DNA of 64,000 nt from NCBI RefSeq assembly GCF_050320075.1, contig NZ_CP190021.1. One strand, written 5' to 3'. Shown piece after piece: positions 2,442-62,184 of the stretch (within the stretch, counting starts at the first letter, position 1; each line of letters begins with the position of its first letter). Made by a program: the position numbers and the translations under genes. This DNA comes from Escherichia coli (lineage in GTDB: Bacteria > Pseudomonadota > Gammaproteobacteria > Enterobacterales > Enterobacteriaceae). The notes beneath the pieces are model-generated. The model did not search any database, was not told the DNA's origin, and saw nothing but the letters and a program-made list of their open reading frames with translations.

Positions 2442-3157
2442 GCGCACGTTCACGGGCACTGATCCCCCTCAGCGCAGAACAACAGGCCGCCATGCAGGCG
2501 GTGGCTGTCACAGAACAACGTCGTCGTCAGGGACGCACACTTTCAGCATGGCCTTATGCCACCGCTTTCTTTCGCTGCCTGAATGGCAGTCGCCGGATTT
2601 CGCTGACCGATCTCCGCTTTTTTGCCCCTGCGCTGACGAAGGAGGAATTTCATGGCAACCGTCTCCTGTGGCTGGCTGCCGTGGATAAACTGATTGAAAG
2701 TTTTGGGGAAGTCTGTGTTCTTCCCCTGCCATCCGATGCGGGGCACCGTCTGTTCCCGTCCGTGCCTTTTCGTGAAGGTGAGCGTCGTCGTCAGAAAACC
2801 ACGCTGACAGAGCAGAAATACAGCCGCCAGCGGGAACGTGAGGCAGAACGACGGGAACTGGAATACCAGACATGTTTTGCTCAGGCGCAGATTGACCTTG
2901 CGTTTCATACTCCCGCCACGGTCGGAAGCTGGTTGTCCCGCTGGTCTGGTGTTGTTGAGGAGCATGATCTGGAAACGATTTTCTGGGGGTGGTGCGGGCG
3001 TTTTCCATCACTGTCATCATTTGACCGGTTTTTCTGGCAGGAGGAACCACTCTGGCGGCTGATTTTTGAAGCCGGTGAGGCCGGTCGTGGTGCACCGGTA
3101 CAGGTACGTGCACTTGAGCAGTGGATGATCCCGAACAAGCTGGAGAACGTAATATGA
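2438..3157 (+). CDS. psiA: PsiA protein
   Basis: 239 aa, start overlaps psiB stop (coupled), typical psiB-psiA arrangement and size. Confidence 0.8.
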
Positions 3158-3750
3158 TGAAATCAGACGAAAAATACCAGGTTCCCGCGTGGATGCGACC
3201 TCTGTTGCCGTTGCTCTGCAACACCGGGGGGAACGATCCGGAAGAACTGCTGAATGATACAGAAACCACTGCCAGTGCGAATGTTGTCCGTTATGTACTG
3301 ATAGTTGCTGTGCGGTCGCAGGTTGATCTGCTGCAGCTTCTGTACAGGAAAGGGCTGTTGCGCACAGAGATACCAGGTGGCTTTTCACCGGAAGAAGCGC
3401 AGGCACTCCTGGATAATCTGGTGCGCAGCCATATCAGCAAGGCGCTGTCGGGCGAGCGAATGGCAGCCCGTGACAGAAATGCCGATCTGGCCTGGATTGG
3501 ACAGCAACTGGTCGATGACGCCTGGTTTGTCCGTGCCACACTGGAAGCGCATGGGATGAGCGTCGGAAATGAGAGTCCCCCTGCTCCGCCGGAGACAATG
3601 CCGGACATACAGACACGGGAACTGGTGATGTTGATCAAGCGACTGGCATCATCGCTGAAAGCGGTGAAACCGGACAGTTGTGTGGTGCGTGAAGCGCAGG
3701 ACTGGCTGCGCGACAGAAAACTTGTGGATATCACAGATATTCTCCGGTGA
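3154..3750 (+). CDS. hypothetical leading-region protein, translationally coupled to psiA
   Basis: ATGA overlap with psiA stop at 3154-3157; GGAG RBS upstream; 198 aa; no recognisable motif. Confidence 0.55.
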   Translation: MMKSDEKYQVPAWMRPLLPLLCNTGGNDPEELLNDTETTASANVVRYVLIVAVRSQVDLLQLLYRKGLLRTEIPGGFSPEEAQALLDNLVRSHISKALSGERMAARDRNADLAWIGQQLVDDAWFVRATLEAHGMSVGNESPPAPPETMPDIQTRELVMLIKRLASSLKAVKPDSCVVREAQDWLRDRKLVDITDILR

Positions 3751-45971: not shown

Positions 45972-45990
45972 GTGCCAATCCGGTACCTGG
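45972..45990 (+). repeat. shufflon sfx repeat 1
   Basis: gtgccaatccggtacctgg. Confidence 0.9.
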
Positions 45991-46446
45991 GGCGCTCCTA
46001 AAATTCAATTCACAACGCAGACCTACAACATAGCTAAAAACACTCGTAATTTAAGGCTCGGGGTCCATGCATATTGCTCATGGACTTACCTGAATGGCTC
46101 ACCCTTTGGTGGTTTTCAACAGGTATATTCCGACCAAAACAACGTTTGGTATGTGAGTAATTATGCTTGGGGAAATTATGAGTCTGGTGGGACCATATCA
46201 GTCACATGCCTCAATCTTCCTGGTGCTGGAGCTTAATTAAAGGGGCAACAGTAGGCATCGACATGTTCCTCATCAACACCATCACCAATACCGTACATGC
46301 GTGTTCCAGTCATAATGTATCCAGTCGGACATTGAATCGGCTTGTAATAGATCGAACCACCACTCTTACCGCCGATAAAGTGATTCATTGCTACGGATGA
46401 TTTGTACCAATTACATGCTGAGTAATTAATTTTATTACCCCCTGAC

Positions 46447-46465
46447 CACCGACCGGATTGGCACG
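46447..46465 (-). repeat. shufflon sfx repeat 2
   Basis: reverse complement gtgccaatccggtcggtgg. Confidence 0.9.
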
Positions 46466-46472
46466 TAGGCCA

Positions 46473-46491
46473 GTGCCAATCCGGTACTTGG
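46473..46491 (+). repeat. shufflon sfx repeat 3
   Basis: gtgccaatccggtacttgg. Confidence 0.9.
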
Positions 46492-46801
46492 CGTAAAAGC
46501 AATTCTGGTAGTACGGTGATAACTGGTCGTATAGCAAATGGTCAGCAAATACCGCTGCCAACAGGATTTTCTGCCAGTCAGTGCTCATGGAGTGTGAGCA
46601 ATGCAGAAAACCCTCAAGGTTGGAAGCCGAATTACTTTGCAGGATCAGTTGCAACTTATGATGCAAATCGAATTGTTAAATGTGGTTTTTATGATGAATA
46701 CAATTTCCATAAAGGGACATTTAGAGCTGATTTAACCGGAAAATGTAGTTATGTCGTCGCGTGTCAGAACTGAGATTAAATTGCTGGCGCTGCTGGCCTA
46801 C

Positions 46802-56917: not shown

Positions 56918-57355
56918 TTAGTTAACGTAGACGACAGAACCAGCAGTAATGCCTGCCGGGGGTGTCAGACCGGTTGCAGTTCCTGATAGCCAGGTGAGTT
57001 GCCCGTTTTGGAAGATCCCTATTAGTGCAGAACCACGACTTTTTGAACGCAAAGTTTCAACAAGACCTGGTTGTTCAGGCATCCATACCCACAGACGCCC
57101 CTGTTGTAACTGATGTTTAATTCGGGAGTCCGGAGTGACAGGGAGAGCCAGTTTATCTGAGGAAATTACTCCGTCCTGCTGGCCTGATACGTATCTGATA
57201 TCATTGATTCTGTTAGCAATCATCAGTATCTGACTTGCCCATACAGACGCACTTGCATATTGCTGGGCGTTTGTGGTTTCAGACATCTTCTGATTCTGGT
57301 AGCTACCAGTGATAATCAGAATGGTCAGGCCGACGGCCATGACCAGCCATCCCAT
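56918..57355 (-). CDS. pilM: PilM
   Basis: 145 aa with N-terminal transmembrane helix; synteny. Confidence 0.65.
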   Translation of the reverse strand: MGWLVMAVGLTILIITGSYQNQKMSETTNAQQYASASVWASQILMIANRINDIRYVSGQQDGVISSDKLALPVTPDSRIKHQLQQGRLWVWMPEQPGLVETLRSKSRGSALIGIFQNGQLTWLSGTATGLTPPAGITAGSVVYVN

Positions 57356-58422
57356 TAGCGACCATCCCTTGTATCAGAAACTGTAATGATGCACTGCATG
57401 CGAGAAGCCTGTGCGTATAAAGGTTTTTGCGCAGTCCGATATAACTCAAATACCTGCTCCATGGCTGATTCAAATGATCCCCGGAACATTAAAGGCGCAT
57501 CCAGACGGTAATCGGTTACAGAAAGTGGCCATATGACCATCCAGTGCGTTGATGCCATGCTTTCGCATTTTGTTTCTTCTGCCCACTTGATAATGTTCTC
57601 TCTTAATGTGGTGCCTGCCGGCGCACGCCACTCTTTACCCTGAGATACCGGTTTAACAGGCGTTCCGGTCATGAGCGGGATAGACTTGACTGTGGAGCCG
57701 GTTGGAGTCGGGGTGGCGGCGGGGGTTGACGAAGATACGCTGTTTCCTCTGAATGGATTTCGTGGTTTGTTCTGGCTATTTGCTGTTGTTGGAGATTCAG
57801 GGGAAGTGGATGTGGTTACCATGGCTGCTGGCGAGATAGTGGTTGCCGTGTCCTGTGCCGGTGCAGCAGCTGATGTTGTGACGGTCAACGTTTTATTATC
57901 CCAGTCCAGATGGCCCCATAGGTGTTGTTCTTCCAGCAACCGATTCAGAGAACGGGTCCACTGATCATTGGCAGACCATGAAACCAGTTTGGTATTCAGC
58001 TTGGGCGTGGCTGCATTCTCTTGTCTGAATTTCCATCCTTCCGGTAGTAATGTTTTTATCCACTGACTGACGGTCCGGTTACGGGCCGTCGGCGATAGTG
58101 TTACAGGGGCGCTACCAGGCTTGCCTGTAATGATTAACCGGGAGAAATTCTGACTTATTGTTGGTGAAGGTAACGGTCGGGATTCGCTGACTGGATGTGC
58201 TGTTTTTACTGTCTCTGGCACGCTGACTCTCGGGGGGGGAGTTATTTTAGGTGGAGAAAGACGTTGTTGCGTAAGTGCCAGAACGCCAGCACTCTCACTG
58301 ATTTGTCCGTCAACAAAAACCAGAGCAGGCGTATCTGATGGTGCCACGTTATTGCTGCCGGAAATTCCGGCACAGCCGGACAATAATGACGGCAGTATAA
58401 GTGTCAGATAGTTTTTTTTCAT
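57355..58422 (-). CDS. pilL: PilL lipoprotein
   Basis: Lipoprotein signal LLSGCAG; 355 aa. Confidence 0.8.
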   Translation of the reverse strand: MKKNYLTLILPSLLSGCAGISGSNNVAPSDTPALVFVDGQISESAGVLALTQQRLSPPKITPPPRVSVPETVKTAHPVSESRPLPSPTISQNFSRLIITGKPGSAPVTLSPTARNRTVSQWIKTLLPEGWKFRQENAATPKLNTKLVSWSANDQWTRSLNRLLEEQHLWGHLDWDNKTLTVTTSAAAPAQDTATTISPAAMVTTSTSPESPTTANSQNKPRNPFRGNSVSSSTPAATPTPTGSTVKSIPLMTGTPVKPVSQGKEWRAPAGTTLRENIIKWAEETKCESMASTHWMVIWPLSVTDYRLDAPLMFRGSFESAMEQVFELYRTAQKPLYAQASRMQCIITVSDTRDGR

Positions 58423-58455
58423 AACGGAGACTCCGTGTTCGTATATACGTGTTTG

Positions 58456-59046
58456 TTAATTGGTGTGAGGCGGCTGGAGAGGACGAATGACGACTGTCAT
58501 TCCGTCCGAATGCAAATGCGGGAGAGACCACTGAAATAAGAGATATACAAAAGGAATTGATAATCTTTCATACAGACTTGTTTTCCGTGGGCATGTAATA
58601 ACAGAGAAATTCAAACCATAAGATTCCAGTCTCTTTATAAGTTTATTTATTCTTGCAGGAGTAAAGAGATGTGAATGCATAACAATGGTTTCATCATTAT
58701 TAATTGCTTTTGATATCAGAGAAAGTAACACATCCCAGTGTTTCCTCATTGACTCCGGGCAACGTGTATCGGCATAGGGGCTAAGATGTATGCTTGATTC
58801 TTTACTGCCATTTTTTTTCGCAAAGAATGTGAAGTTGTATTTAGATACAGACCTTACGATAAGAAGCACGCATCTGAAAAGTAGTGGGGAAAAGCAGATA
58901 ATAACCACTATACAGAAATATAATATATAAGATAGTGATATGTGGTCAGTGTATAGATAACGGAAGTATTGCCACGGGGTAGTGATGTACAGGCAAAACG
59001 TACACCAAAGTAACCATAGATATAATGGTACGTTATTATTTTTCAT
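58456..59046 (-). CDS. pilK: PilK-like membrane protein; paralogous to the product of 60113-60739
   Basis: N-terminal transmembrane helices; C-terminal region similar to ORF 60113-60739; AT-rich; symbol positional. Confidence 0.55.
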   Translation of the reverse strand: MKNNNVPLYLWLLWCTFCLYITTPWQYFRYLYTDHISLSYILYFCIVVIICFSPLLFRCVLLIVRSVSKYNFTFFAKKNGSKESSIHLSPYADTRCPESMRKHWDVLLSLISKAINNDETIVMHSHLFTPARINKLIKRLESYGLNFSVITCPRKTSLYERLSIPFVYLLFQWSLPHLHSDGMTVVIRPLQPPHTN

Positions 59047-59095
59047 GTTAGTTGATGCCGGCGACTAAGATAACAGAGTAAGGGGGATTAACTGT

Positions 59096-59548
59096 TTAAT
59101 TCTTTGGAACGAAAAAATGCAGTTCCTGAACATCACACACCATTATTTCCACAGGCTTACCATTTTTATCCAGTAAATTTGAATTGGTTTCAAAAGATTT
59201 GCAGTTGTTTTTACTTTTAAATGAATCAAGGTACAGGGTGTTAATGTCAGATTCGTCATCTGTTGTTTCTCTTGAAATAATACTGTTTTTTATCACCACA
59301 TTTTCATGTATCTCATTTGGCATTTTGTACTGTTGCAAATATTGTTGGCGGCGGATGCGTGCCTGTTCACTGCTTTCTATGAACACCACCGTGATGATTG
59401 CCCCGTACATGATAATCAGGAAAACCCAGAAATCTTTTGGTATCTTCCAAAAAAGTGCGGACAGTTTGTTATCTGATGAAATTAAAATCGGAAAAAGGAT
59501 TGCAAAGACAATCAAAATCGCGATGGTTAATTTAAATAAAAACGACAT
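59096..59548 (-). CDS. pilJ: PilJ-like small membrane protein
   Basis: 150 aa, two transmembrane helices, AT-rich; symbol positional. Confidence 0.5.
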   Translation of the reverse strand: MSFLFKLTIAILIVFAILFPILISSDNKLSALFWKIPKDFWVFLIIMYGAIITVVFIESSEQARIRRQQYLQQYKMPNEIHENVVIKNSIISRETTDDESDINTLYLDSFKSKNNCKSFETNSNLLDKNGKPVEIMVCDVQELHFFVPKN

Positions 59549-59590
59549 GGTCCCCTCCTGTTTTGACGAGGTCTTTTGTTTTTGTTGTTT

Positions 59591-59845
59591 TTACGACAGC
59601 CAGTCCTGCAGGTGCTGATGGCGGGAGCGGCTACCCTTGCGCCAGCGGCAGTGGCTACCGGGTGCACGTTCCAGGCGGAACAGAAATCGGTTGTTGCATA
59701 GTACCACCACAAGGCAGTTATCCGGCGTGCAGAAGCGTCGGGCAAGCTCATCGGGATCTGTCTGTGTTTTCGTTGAAAACAGCTTGCGTTTGCAGTGCGT
59801 GTCGACGACCAGTACCTGTAGTCGTCCGGGATGTTGCTGTGGCAT
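59591..59845 (-). CDS. pilI: PilI-like small protein (84 aa from ATG 59845)
   Basis: ORF of expected size at the head of the pil operon; symbol positional. Confidence 0.45.
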   Translation of the reverse strand: MPQQHPGRLQVLVVDTHCKRKLFSTKTQTDPDELARRFCTPDNCLVVVLCNNRFLFRLERAPGSHCRWRKGSRSRHQHLQDWLS

Positions 59846-60112
59846 CAAAGACTCCTTTCGGAACGGGAAAAGAAGCAGCTGTACCGTCGTAACTGCACGT
59901 ACCGGTTGCGAAAAAACGGCACAAGCGAGTAGTGACAGAAAGAATCCCGGGAACGGCAGAAAGGGTGGTACAGGCTGCGAAGACGGGTCACGGGGTGTGT
60001 CGGGAATTAACGCACGTGAGGCGTAATGAGAGCGAAGCTCTTTTTGCCAGGGTCATCTACGTTGATTTTCATGTATGTTTTCCTGTCGGAAATCGTGGTG
60101 CTCTTATAACTG

Positions 60113-60739
60113 TTATTCCCTGTTTCCAGAATCGTTTTTCAGGGTCAGAATGACAATACCACAGCGGGGATTTATGTGAGGCACTTTCCACTGAGATAAG
60201 ATTCTGCTGACGATGAGGATGCGGAACATGACGCTATTCATGGCGGATTCCCTTCGTTCCGCTGTTACATCCAGCCCTTTTCGGCGCAGAGAGCAAATCA
60301 GCTTTTGTGTCCTGGCTTCAGTCAGAAGATGGGATTTCATGTAGATACGTTTCTTCTGGCGTAATAAGGGGGGCAGCTTTTCGAGTAATTGCTTGAAGTG
60401 TTTTTTTATCGCCTTCTTTGAGGAAGTATCTGCGAGTGCGCTCAGGAAAACACATACTGTGTGATTGTCAGACATGTCTTTGGTTTTAAAACTATTTTTC
60501 CTAAATATTATTCTAAGCAGAATGAAAAACGGACGGACTAACAGCGGGAGAGCTATCATCCCCAATATCTCTACTAGCGTCCATATGTTCATCTGGTACA
60601 AGCCATCCTTGCAGAGCAAAATCGCTATAATGCACCAGACGCTATATATAGCTAATGGAATACGATATTGGAGTTTCATGTATTGCTCTTCCTCAGTGTA
60701 ATGTGATAGTCGTCTGCTCCTGTGTTGCACCCCAGACAT
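60113..60739 (-). CDS. traD: TraD-like membrane protein, paralog of PilK
   Basis: Transmembrane N-terminus; C-terminal similarity to the 58456-59046 product; start may be the internal Met; symbol positional. Confidence 0.5.
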   Translation of the reverse strand: MSGVQHRSRRLSHYTEEEQYMKLQYRIPLAIYSVWCIIAILLCKDGLYQMNIWTLVEILGMIALPLLVRPFFILLRIIFRKNSFKTKDMSDNHTVCVFLSALADTSSKKAIKKHFKQLLEKLPPLLRQKKRIYMKSHLLTEARTQKLICSLRRKGLDVTAERRESAMNSVMFRILIVSRILSQWKVPHINPRCGIVILTLKNDSGNRE

Positions 60740-61376
60740 CTTCTGGCAGGCTGGGCAGCCCGATAAATAAGGTGTGAAAGAGGGTTTCTCTGCGTTCGAT
60801 CCCGAATTGATGTTCGTATCCTCTCACCACCTGAAATCCTTCGTCGGAGAATATTAACTCTGCCGCTTCCAGAAGCTGCATAGTTTTGCGGTGTAGTGGA
60901 GTGATCAGCTGCAACGTAACTGGTGCCCTCATATCGCCTGTCGGTAGAAAACACTCTTCGGTGCGACTTAGTTGTAGCAGATGACGTTTCCCGGAACAGG
61001 CCCGTTCAATGGATTCATTGAACACCCTCTCAGGCCATGGGCAGACATATGTGCGCCAGCCTGCTTTCTGTAATTTACCCAGTGCAGCCCGAAAACGAAA
61101 CAACGGACATTCCCCGACAGTGGCAGAGCTGAGAAAGAGCGTATTCAGCGTTCCGATGATGGGAATATTGCGATCTTTTTCGGTCAATGCTTTTAACGCC
61201 ATGATTTCGCCAGGGAGACTACGGAACTCAGGATGTCTGCTGGCACCAGAAAGCCATTCAAGCAGGTAATGCCGTAATCCGGTTTCACTGGTTATATTGT
61301 GGTTTTCCTGTGCCGTTTTCAGGGCATTCAGTGCACACCAGAGCAACTGGCGCACGGGATGTTCTGTCGTGGTCAT
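60693..61376 (-). CDS. traC: TraC-like putative transfer regulator
   Basis: 227-aa ORF between the NusG-like gene and traD; symbol positional. Confidence 0.55.
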   Translation of the reverse strand: MTTTEHPVRQLLWCALNALKTAQENHNITSETGLRHYLLEWLSGASRHPEFRSLPGEIMALKALTEKDRNIPIIGTLNTLFLSSATVGECPLFRFRAALGKLQKAGWRTYVCPWPERVFNESIERACSGKRHLLQLSRTEECFLPTGDMRAPVTLQLITPLHRKTMQLLEAAELIFSDEGFQVVRGYEHQFGIERRETLFHTLFIGLPSLPEDVWGATQEQTTITLH

Positions 61377-61629
61377 GCGAATGTCCTACTGTGAGATGAA
61401 AAGAAGACCGGTATCCGTTCTCTCCGCCACACGTGATGGCACGGGCCGGCCTTTGATAAAACGAATCAATACTCTGGGGTGAAGCCTTTTATTTCTTTCG
61501 CCATTAAGAAATACACGGTTCCATCAAAAGACAGGGGGAGTCCATGGTGGGGATGGCTTCGTGCAGGCTTCACTCCGGAATATTCTCTTGAATTGAAAAA
61601 AGCCCGGCCCGAAGGCCGGGAAATACTGG

Positions 61630-62184
61630 CTATGGGATGTTTACAAGGCGCTCCATAAAGCCGTGATGTTCGGCATTTGATACCAGTTCCAGGAGCAGGG
61701 ATATCCTCGACTCAGGCTGGAGAGTATTTTCCATTCTGAGGAGATACTGATATTGTGCTTTTGTCAGCCATATGCTGGAAGCCGCATTCAGCTCTTCCCT
61801 GGCTCCCGGATTTAGCACAGGGTCCGGGTAAATCTTCATTAATCCATCAACAATATCTTTATTGACGGGTTTTATTTCACCGCCAAACTTCACGAAATCA
61901 ATGAAGGCGCTATGTCGACGTAATGCTGATACTGGGTGAATGTCAAAATTAGCCAGAATAAAAAAGTACCCTGGAAAAATAGCGAATATTCTTTCACGGT
62001 AACAGCACCTGGAGTCTGCCCGTCTTATCTTTCTTGTTATTAATGGAGTCCATGGTACGACGTTTTGCTCATTCAGCCATGAGAATAAAGATTCTCTGTT
62101 TTTGCCGGCTGTATTATATTGCGCAAGATACCAGTTCCGGTTATTCAGGTGTTCTATATTCACGAAGTTCAACGCTCCGCGCAA
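61630..62184 (-). CDS. traB: NusG/RfaH-family specialised transcription antiterminator (TraB/ActX-like)
   Basis: NusG N-terminal-like NWYLAQYN..PGYFFILANFD..FVKFGGE; the track start is a TTG, and a GTG at 62163 with a GGAG RBS is a more likely start. Confidence 0.75.
   Translation of the reverse strand: MRGALNFVNIEHLNNRNWYLAQYNTAGKNRESLFSWLNEQNVVPWTPLITRKIRRADSRCCYRERIFAIFPGYFFILANFDIHPVSALRRHSAFIDFVKFGGEIKPVNKDIVDGLMKIYPDPVLNPGAREELNAASSIWLTKAQYQYLLRMENTLQPESRISLLLELVSNAEHHGFMERLVNIP

Follow-up and report, generated by a model that had tools for sequence, protein, structure and literature searches.

PilK and TraD of an R64-type IncI1 plasmid are members of one small, uncatalogued inner-membrane family of conjugative elements

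IncI1 plasmids are major carriers of resistance genes, including those for extended-spectrum β-lactamases (ESBL), and it is the thin pilus that drives their transfer in liquid as well as in the gut. In the plasmid R64, pilK is reportedly one of the genes of thin-pilus biogenesis (work attributed to Kim and Komano in 1997, to Yoshida et al. in 1999 and to Sakai and Komano in 2002), and traD is said to be the fourth gene of the traABCD region (work attributed to Kim et al. in 1993). Here we examine these two genes in 64,000 nucleotides of Escherichia coli DNA (contig NZ_CP190021.1; the whole stretch is referred to as the window), which form the transfer region of a conjugative IncI1 plasmid of the R64 type, and we report that their products are homologous and form one small, uncatalogued inner-membrane family specific to conjugative elements. 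The literature files R64 TraD under "regulatory genes" (PMC5801416), whereas in our analysis it is a homolog of PilK without a regulatory domain.

Both genes lie on the minus strand, within the order traA, traB, traC, traD, pilI, pilJ, pilK, pilL, pilM, pilN, and both are the known R64 genes. The pilK frame stands in the same place upstream of pilL as in R64, with no difference, and the frame at 60113-60679 is R64 traD. Many plasmid records from Salmonella and E. coli match positions 58300-61400 of the window at 100% identity. As genes, pilK and traD have been known since the 1990s; what is new here is the family context and the link between PilK and TraD, of which full-text searches returned no statement in the literature, though these searches did not cover the original R64 papers and an earlier mention is possible.

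Several better-known proteins share a name or a label with these two. The TraD of the F plasmid, a type IV coupling protein of the VirD4/TrwB family, has only its name in common with TraD of the window: it is an ATPase of about 700 residues, whereas the window's protein has 188 residues and lacks the P-loop and the TrwB/TraG domain by which coupling proteins, of about 600-750 residues, are recognised. PilK of the Neisseria and Pseudomonas type IVa systems is likewise a namesake only; the Neisseria protein is a minor pilin, whereas PilK of the window has no class III signal peptide. With PapD-like chaperones PilK shares a database label and nothing else, since it has neither PF00345 nor PF02753, lacks a signal peptide and is predicted to carry an α/β domain on a membrane hairpin. 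In ColIb-P9-type plasmids the traD site is occupied by an unrelated lipoprotein gene, trcD (PMC8004404).

Homology of PilK and TraD

A preliminary description of this DNA, made from its letters, had proposed that the PilK-like and TraD-like products are paralogs, a proposal that a non-significant alignment would have overturned. The pairwise alignment is significant, and PilK and TraD are homologous. BLASTP with compositional adjustment aligns them at E=3e-15, with 29% identity over 182 residues that take in PilK residues 5-179 and thus nearly the full length, and full-length Smith-Waterman alignment gives z=24.5 against 2000 shuffles. Profile comparison with hhalign, using nine PilK-clade and two TraD-clade sequences, joins the two clades over 186 columns at 99.75% probability (E=2e-27). 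The two are further connected by a bridging sequence (P0045, gene L002_175), which shares 44% identity with TraD (E=3e-41) and 31% with PilK (E=1.5e-22).

The C-terminal segments that had been quoted as shared, HSHLFTPARINKLIKRLE in PilK and KSHLLTEARTQKLICSLR in TraD, align with each other and hold an invariant Ser-His pair and a near-invariant Arg. The N-terminal membrane region noted earlier in both products consists in each of two hydrophobic helices (hydropathy and AlphaFold2), and structure prediction, which had been suggested as a check, gives PilK and TraD an equal order of structural elements. That the similarity is an artefact of small membrane proteins with hydrophobic, AT-biased composition has practically no chance of being right: both N-termini are hydrophobic, both genes lie in lower-GC DNA and the membrane N-terminal part alone is weakly similar (z=2.9, 2000 shuffles), but the soluble C-terminal part alone reaches z=19.2 with 0 of 2000 shuffles attaining the observed score, so that membrane composition does not explain the match, and the composition-adjusted BLASTP result, the hhalign result and the motifs kept across 26 diverse members speak against it as well.

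A hidden Markov model (HMM) of the family, run over all six-frame open reading frames (ORFs), matches twice in the window and just once in each of the other loci examined. We found no larger duplicated block: comparisons of traC with pilJ, of pilI with traC, and of pilJ with traD and pilK all gave z≤1.1. Because TraC, PilI and PilJ are dissimilar to one another and to PilK and TraD, the duplication is restricted to one gene. The adjacent pilJ was considered as a hidden third member of the family and was ruled out, as it has no match to the family HMM.

Both genes had also been described as lying in AT-rich DNA. This holds for pilK, with a GC content of 37.1%, and likewise for its neighbour pilJ (34.9%), but traD at 43.0% is not clearly AT-rich against the window's 49.6%, and GC content at third codon positions (GC3) is 36.5% in pilK versus 51.9% in traD. 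A sharp GC step also occurs within the pil operon, where pilK and pilJ (58456-59548) at 35-37% adjoin pilI (59591-59845) at 58%, with pilL at 50%, which suggests a mosaic origin of this part of the operon.

The boundaries first given for pilK agree with the RefSeq annotation of an identical plasmid, whereas those of traD need a correction at the 5' end. The frame initially taken for traD (60113-60739, 208 residues) is the longest possible ORF, and its first 20 codons overlap traC. Three observations make 60679 the most likely start, in place of 60739: RefSeq TraD begins there (188 residues), every homolog aligns from the methionine encoded there (MKLQYRIPLA / MKRERLIPLA), and a Shine-Dalgarno sequence, GAGGAAGAG, lies 6-15 nucleotides upstream of 60679 and overlaps the stop codon of traC. 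TraD as translated probably lacks the extension at 60680-60739, and its translation is probably coupled to that of traC. R64-type TraD shows almost no sequence diversity apart from frameshift and read-through variants. Four database "relatives" of TraD (P0016, P0023, P0042 and P0043) are this same gene with frameshifts or with read-through into the trcD remnant. Coordinates of the genes and segments discussed here, together with the gene orders of comparison loci, are collected in Table 1.

Table 1. Features of the window around pilK and traD, and gene orders of related loci (X and X', the family gene)
Feature	Position in the window or gene order	Strand	Description and basis
pilK	58456..59046	-	196 residues; PilK-type member; ORF, same coding sequence in RefSeq NC_017675.1; family HMM E=1e-69; AlphaFold2 model
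PilK residues 124-141, HSHLFTPARINKLIKRLE	58624..58677	-	End of strand β3, loop and helix α2; invariant S125-H126, near-invariant R132; 26-member alignment and PilK model
traD	60113..60679	-	188 residues from the annotated start; TraD-type member; RefSeq "protein TraD"; BLASTP against PilK; family HMM E=2.6e-47; AlphaFold2 model
TraD residues 115-132, KSHLLTEARTQKLICSLR	60284..60337	-	Counterpart of the PilK 124-141 motif; S116-H117, R123
20-codon N-terminal extension of the longer traD frame	60680..60739	-	Overlaps the 3' end of traC; homologs unaligned there
traC	60693..61376	-	Positive regulator gene; stop codon 13 nucleotides upstream of the traD start
traB	61630..62163	-	NusG/RfaH-like regulator
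trcD-like lipoprotein gene, 3'-end remnant	60007..60050 (short ORF 60006-60071, MKINVDDPGKKSFALITPHVR, then stop)	-	Downstream of traD; blastn and C-terminal peptide ..LITPHVR before the stop
pilI	59591..59845	-	Pfam PF10623; in the block between the two paralogs
pilJ	59096..59548	-	150 residues; two-helix membrane protein; AT-rich; outside the PilK/TraD family (z=0.4-1.1 against PilK and TraD; no family HMM match)
pilL	57355..58422	-	TcpQ-domain lipoprotein; first conserved thin-pilus machine gene; start 33 nucleotides after the pilK stop
Locus L007	traB-traC-X-pilL		Single copy; TraB 45% and TraC 27% identical to those of the window
Locus L003 (pSNE1)	traC-X-pilI-pilL		X is of PilK type
Loci L002 and L024	traC-X'-orf92-trcD-pilI-other-pilL		X' is of TraD type (44% to TraD, 31% to PilK) and the sole copy
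Locus L004	traC-trcD-pilI-pilJ'-pilK-pilL		trcD at the traD site; ColIb-P9-type majority (PMC8004404)

Family extent and protein architecture

Searching 1.84 billion cluster representatives with HMMER returned 40 proteins at E≤1e-3, and a profile search of a 5.8-billion-cluster collection returned 81 clusters, all from Enterobacterales where named. The 81 clusters carry no Pfam domain, and their names are either hypothetical or a propagated "pili assembly chaperone". The PilK product itself falls within a 99%-identity cluster of 779 sequences. PilK and TraD matched no Pfam or NCBIfam model above threshold, no model in these collections joins the family, and PHROGs and PADLOC gave nothing credible; a PADLOC match of TraD to Cas11b (E=1.9e-4) covers a helical stretch and was taken as chance. 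The label "pili assembly chaperone", which NCBI and UniRef attach to the PilK homologs P0001, P0004, P0081 and others, appears to be a propagated misnomer, as no chaperone domain is present. In the HMMER search, which was exhaustive, the 647-residue protein P0055 matched profile positions 165-191 twelve times over; it is probably unrelated and repetitive in sequence.

Family members are about 155-215 residues long. In the AlphaFold2 models of PilK and TraD, two N-terminal membrane helices form a hairpin that is followed by a compact α/β domain of ~125 residues with the order β-β-α-β-α-β-α-β; the TraD model is confident (pLDDT 92, pTM 0.79, 26 family members) and the PilK model mediocre (pLDDT 69, six-sequence alignment). 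Among the 26 aligned members, which are 13-25% identical to TraD except for P0045 at 44%, the Ser-His pair is invariant and a Leu, an Arg and a Trp are near-invariant, giving the motif SHLL(T)PxR (SHLLxxxR) and the Trp of QWxxP (W173 in PilK, W164 in TraD). Within this domain the third β-strand ends in the Ser-His motif, and a helix follows directly. Directly behind the second membrane helix, a stretch of 15 residues holds 3-7 Lys or Arg in most members, and the inter-helix loop has few charges. Since Lys and Arg are enriched after the second helix, the positive-inside rule predicts that the α/β domain is probably cytoplasmic.

Fold comparison did not connect this domain to a described protein: Foldseek against solved structures gave nothing at E≤1e-3, and the family profile against PDB sequences gave nothing below E=1. 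Fold searches return generic two-layer α/β sandwiches, among them the IF3 C-terminal domain, the RNase E small domain and Alba. We delimit the family by full-length homology to R64 PilK, the hairpin with its ββαβαβαβ domain, the conserved Ser-His, Leu, Arg and Trp residues, and a location on a conjugative element by type IVb pil or transfer genes, all of which PilK and TraD have. This definition is absent from Pfam and NCBIfam, and it supplies candidate residues (Ser-His, Arg and Trp) in a little-understood R64 thin-pilus gene. Recognising TraD as a PilK homolog also corrects three labels, namely "regulatory", "conjugal transfer protein TraD" and "pili assembly chaperone", of which the second invites a mix-up with the coupling protein of the F plasmid.

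Gene neighbourhoods and origin of the pair

Among the loci examined, both copies occur together only in the R64 type; elsewhere there is a PilK-type gene only or a TraD-type gene only. In the window the TraD-type copy abuts traC and the PilK-type copy abuts pilL, with the trcD remnant, pilI and pilJ between them, while a single family gene stands directly upstream of pilL-pilM-pilN in L005/6, L007 and L008/9. The order in plasmid pESBL is traC-pilI-pilK, with neither traD nor trcD (PMC4288162). By tblastn, PilK is found in ~1390 plasmid records, R64-type TraD in ~330 and the P0045 type in 23, and ~1000 IncI-type plasmids have PilK and no TraD. In the loci of its own plasmids P0045 stands alone, no other family member having been found there. 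Where pilJ and pilK would stand between pilI and pilL, these TraD-type-only plasmids have an unrelated ORF of 215-231 residues (L002 5984-6631; L024 5365-6060). The ORFs between pilI and pilL in L002 and L024 have no match to the family HMM, and the product of L002 5984-6631 resembles a multi-pass membrane protein.

The chromosomes of Salmonella, Pantoea, Erwinia, Phytobacter and others hold distant members, within integrative conjugative elements. Some lie downstream of pilV/rci and before conjugation genes (L016 7001-7501; L019/L020 9001-9468), and others stand beside an integrase and a TraI_2 relaxase (L011, L013, L021 and L022). Because distant members adjoin relaxase and integrase genes or pilV, the role of the family may concern conjugation beyond pilus assembly. 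Published statements that a pil cluster lacks pilK may overlook a homolog elsewhere in the element.

The pair had been put down in the preliminary description to an ancient duplication spanning the pil and tra boundary. The homology, the age (24-29% protein identity between PilK and TraD and no detectable similarity at the DNA level, in contrast to the flanking traA-traC and pilK-pilN stretches, which are 99.6% and 97.4% identical between IncI1 subtypes) and the location (a single copy between traC and pilL in L007 and L003) bear this out, but the mechanism is unproven, as PilK groups with single-copy genes. In a neighbour-joining tree (168 columns, 200 bootstraps), PilK joins the L003 protein at 99% and then the single-copy P0046 and P0049 at 87%, with TraD outside, and TraD joins P0045 at 100%. 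PilK shares 36-46% identity with the single-copy genes found in other lineages of plasmids, versus 24% with TraD. Because PilK groups with these single-copy genes to the exclusion of TraD, the split between PilK and TraD predates the divergence of these plasmid lineages.

As each type is the sole copy in some plasmids, two histories fit this pattern: the gene may have duplicated long ago and undergone reciprocal losses, or recombination may have brought a TraD-type traABCD module together with a PilK-type pil module. We lean towards recombination, because a trcD remnant lies directly downstream of traD in the window and because 108-nucleotide direct repeats (2409-2516 and 3123-3230, 93% identical) flank trcD in L004, a locus of an IncI1 plasmid. 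One copy of the L004 repeat corresponds to window 60009-59902, the spacer upstream of pilI, and recombination between the two copies would give the gene-less traC-127 bp-pilI order listed for pESBL. In blastn comparisons, window 60050-59479 matches L004 3082-3653 and L002 5426-5896, with homology restarting exactly at 60050. R64-type plasmids look like deletion derivatives of a traC-traD'-orf92-trcD-pilI arrangement as found in L002 and L024. The region has been described as a recombination hot spot where alleles of traD/trcD, pilI, pilJ and pilK reassort among IncI1 plasmids (PMC8004404), and from our comparison the traC-pilL junction emerges as a hot spot of recombination and insertion that swaps alternative family alleles.

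The alternative is a tandem duplication in place, at the traC/pilL junction in the R64 lineage, after which the copies diverged and pilI and pilJ were inserted between them; we regard it as possible but rather doubtful. The two copies do flank the junction that is held by a single copy in L007 and L003, they have equal orientation, and both are present only in the R64 type. However, PilK is nearer to the single-copy genes than to TraD in both identity and bootstrap support, and because of this grouping a duplication in place would need to predate the other lineages and to be followed by several losses. The TraD-type gene is moreover the sole copy in at least 23 plasmids, the GC3 values of the two genes differ, and alleles are documented to reassort in this very region (PMC8004404).

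Possible roles of PilK and TraD

From gene context and published genetics, we consider it likely that PilK and TraD are diverged members of a conjugative-element family in which PilK is an accessory subunit of the thin pilus at the inner membrane and TraD a dispensable second copy. PilK would then be a lineage-specific part of the type IVb thin-pilus assembly machine, and its cytoplasmic domain would dock to, or act on, the cytoplasmic face of that machine (the ATPase PilQ, the platform PilR and PilO2). PilO2 has an actin-like, PilM/GspL-type cytoplasmic domain. TraD, diverged and probably not replacing PilK, may have been kept from an old duplication or may have been recombined in from a lineage that has the TraD type as its sole copy. 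R64 pilK frameshift mutants, in the work of Yoshida et al. in 1999, reportedly lacked thin pili although traD was present; if so, TraD cannot substitute for PilK. The title of Sakai and Komano (2002) names pilK as one of the genes that R64 needs for thin-pilus biogenesis. We call TraD dispensable because ~1000 IncI-type plasmids are without it, because pESBL lacks traD yet transfers (PMC4288162), and because traB and traC are the only essential genes of the traABCD cluster (PMC5801416). In transposon sequencing of pESBL, the PilK score was divided into 0.50 for non-essential, 0.46 for essential in maintenance and 0.04 for needed in transfer (PMC4288162), an odd split for a pilus gene that may reflect few transposon insertions in an AT-rich stretch.

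Other pilus clusters likewise encode small inner-membrane proteins with a cytoplasmic domain (the TcpR, BfpC and GspL-type accessory proteins of type IVb pili and type II secretion; PMC10191384), and the role proposed for PilK could be analogous to theirs, but we detected no similarity of sequence or fold between them and PilK, and the likeness is functional speculation. R64-type systems, moreover, already possess PilO2 (crystal structure in PMC3984277).

Some observations weigh against the assignment of PilK as a thin-pilus subunit. The genes pilI, pilJ and pilK are missing from the working pilus system of the IncI2 plasmid TP114, the pil operon of S. Typhi is described without them (PMC6232867), the distant members in integrative elements are not adjacent to pilL, and the sole basis for placing the domain in the cytoplasm is the positive-inside rule. 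Because the PilK/TraD family is missing from some working R64-like type IVb systems, it is not a core part of the machine.

The conserved residues admit a more specific role, which we consider improbable though not negligible: the α/β domain might be an enzyme, or a module that binds a small ligand (phosphate or nucleotide), with the Ser-His pair, the N-terminus of the helix and the Arg as its site. The invariance of Ser-His and the near-invariance of Leu, Arg and Trp in members only 13-25% identical to TraD would agree with this, as would the position of the motif at a β-strand-to-helix junction, which is a common ligand-binding position in α/β folds. With the same small probability, the family could be an unrecognised class of inner-membrane proteins whose cytoplasmic Ser-His/Arg domain, by ligand binding or catalysis, links the assembly of type IVb pili with the conjugation apparatus, both in plasmids of the I-complex and in integrative elements resembling SPI-7/PAPI-1; elements said to be without pilK would then carry a distant homolog elsewhere. 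Were this reading true, traD would have been misfiled as a regulator for thirty years.

Slightly less probable again is that TraD is anchored in the membrane to regulate the expression of transfer genes, a role that the whole family might share. The probable translational coupling of traD to the activator gene traC, across a 13-nucleotide gap and with the Shine-Dalgarno sequence on the traC stop codon, would be in keeping with regulation, and so would the integrative-element family genes that head operons beside the relaxase and a weak Trp_repressor-like match in PilK (E=0.09). That match, at 13 bits against a cut-off of 27, is however the best that Pfam and NCBIfam offer for a DNA-binding or signalling domain in PilK or TraD, and none passes threshold; traD is missing from most IncI1 plasmids, including the transfer-proficient pESBL; and traB and traC are the only genes of the cluster reported to be essential. 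Nothing in our analysis supports a regulatory role of TraD, no credible DNA-binding domain having been detected, and the label "regulatory" reflects map position and not demonstrated function.

The practical impact of these findings is modest, as traD is dispensable and the fold yields no mechanism, and the paralogy of PilK and TraD is a real but modest annotation point.

Some further features of the window touch neighbouring genes. Relatives of TraC carry the annotation DUF2913. A promoter and terminator scan of this region stayed at background level except for a strong terminator after traB, where an intrinsic-terminator-like hairpin, CCCGGCCTTCGGGCCGGG, is followed by a T-run at 61603-61620 on the minus strand, between traB and traC; this placement is notable in that TraB is a NusG/RfaH-like factor. 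An RfaH-type ops element, a possible target of TraB, had no match with fewer than 2 mismatches near the traD-pilI spacer, and its genome-wide count was about that expected by chance. Compared with plasmid TY474p2 (NC_017675.1), the window is collinear at >99% identity except for ~800 bp at about 45990-46801 that have no counterpart there. This segment sits between a site-specific integrase gene (presumably rci) and pilV, and it probably represents a different content or arrangement of the shufflon.

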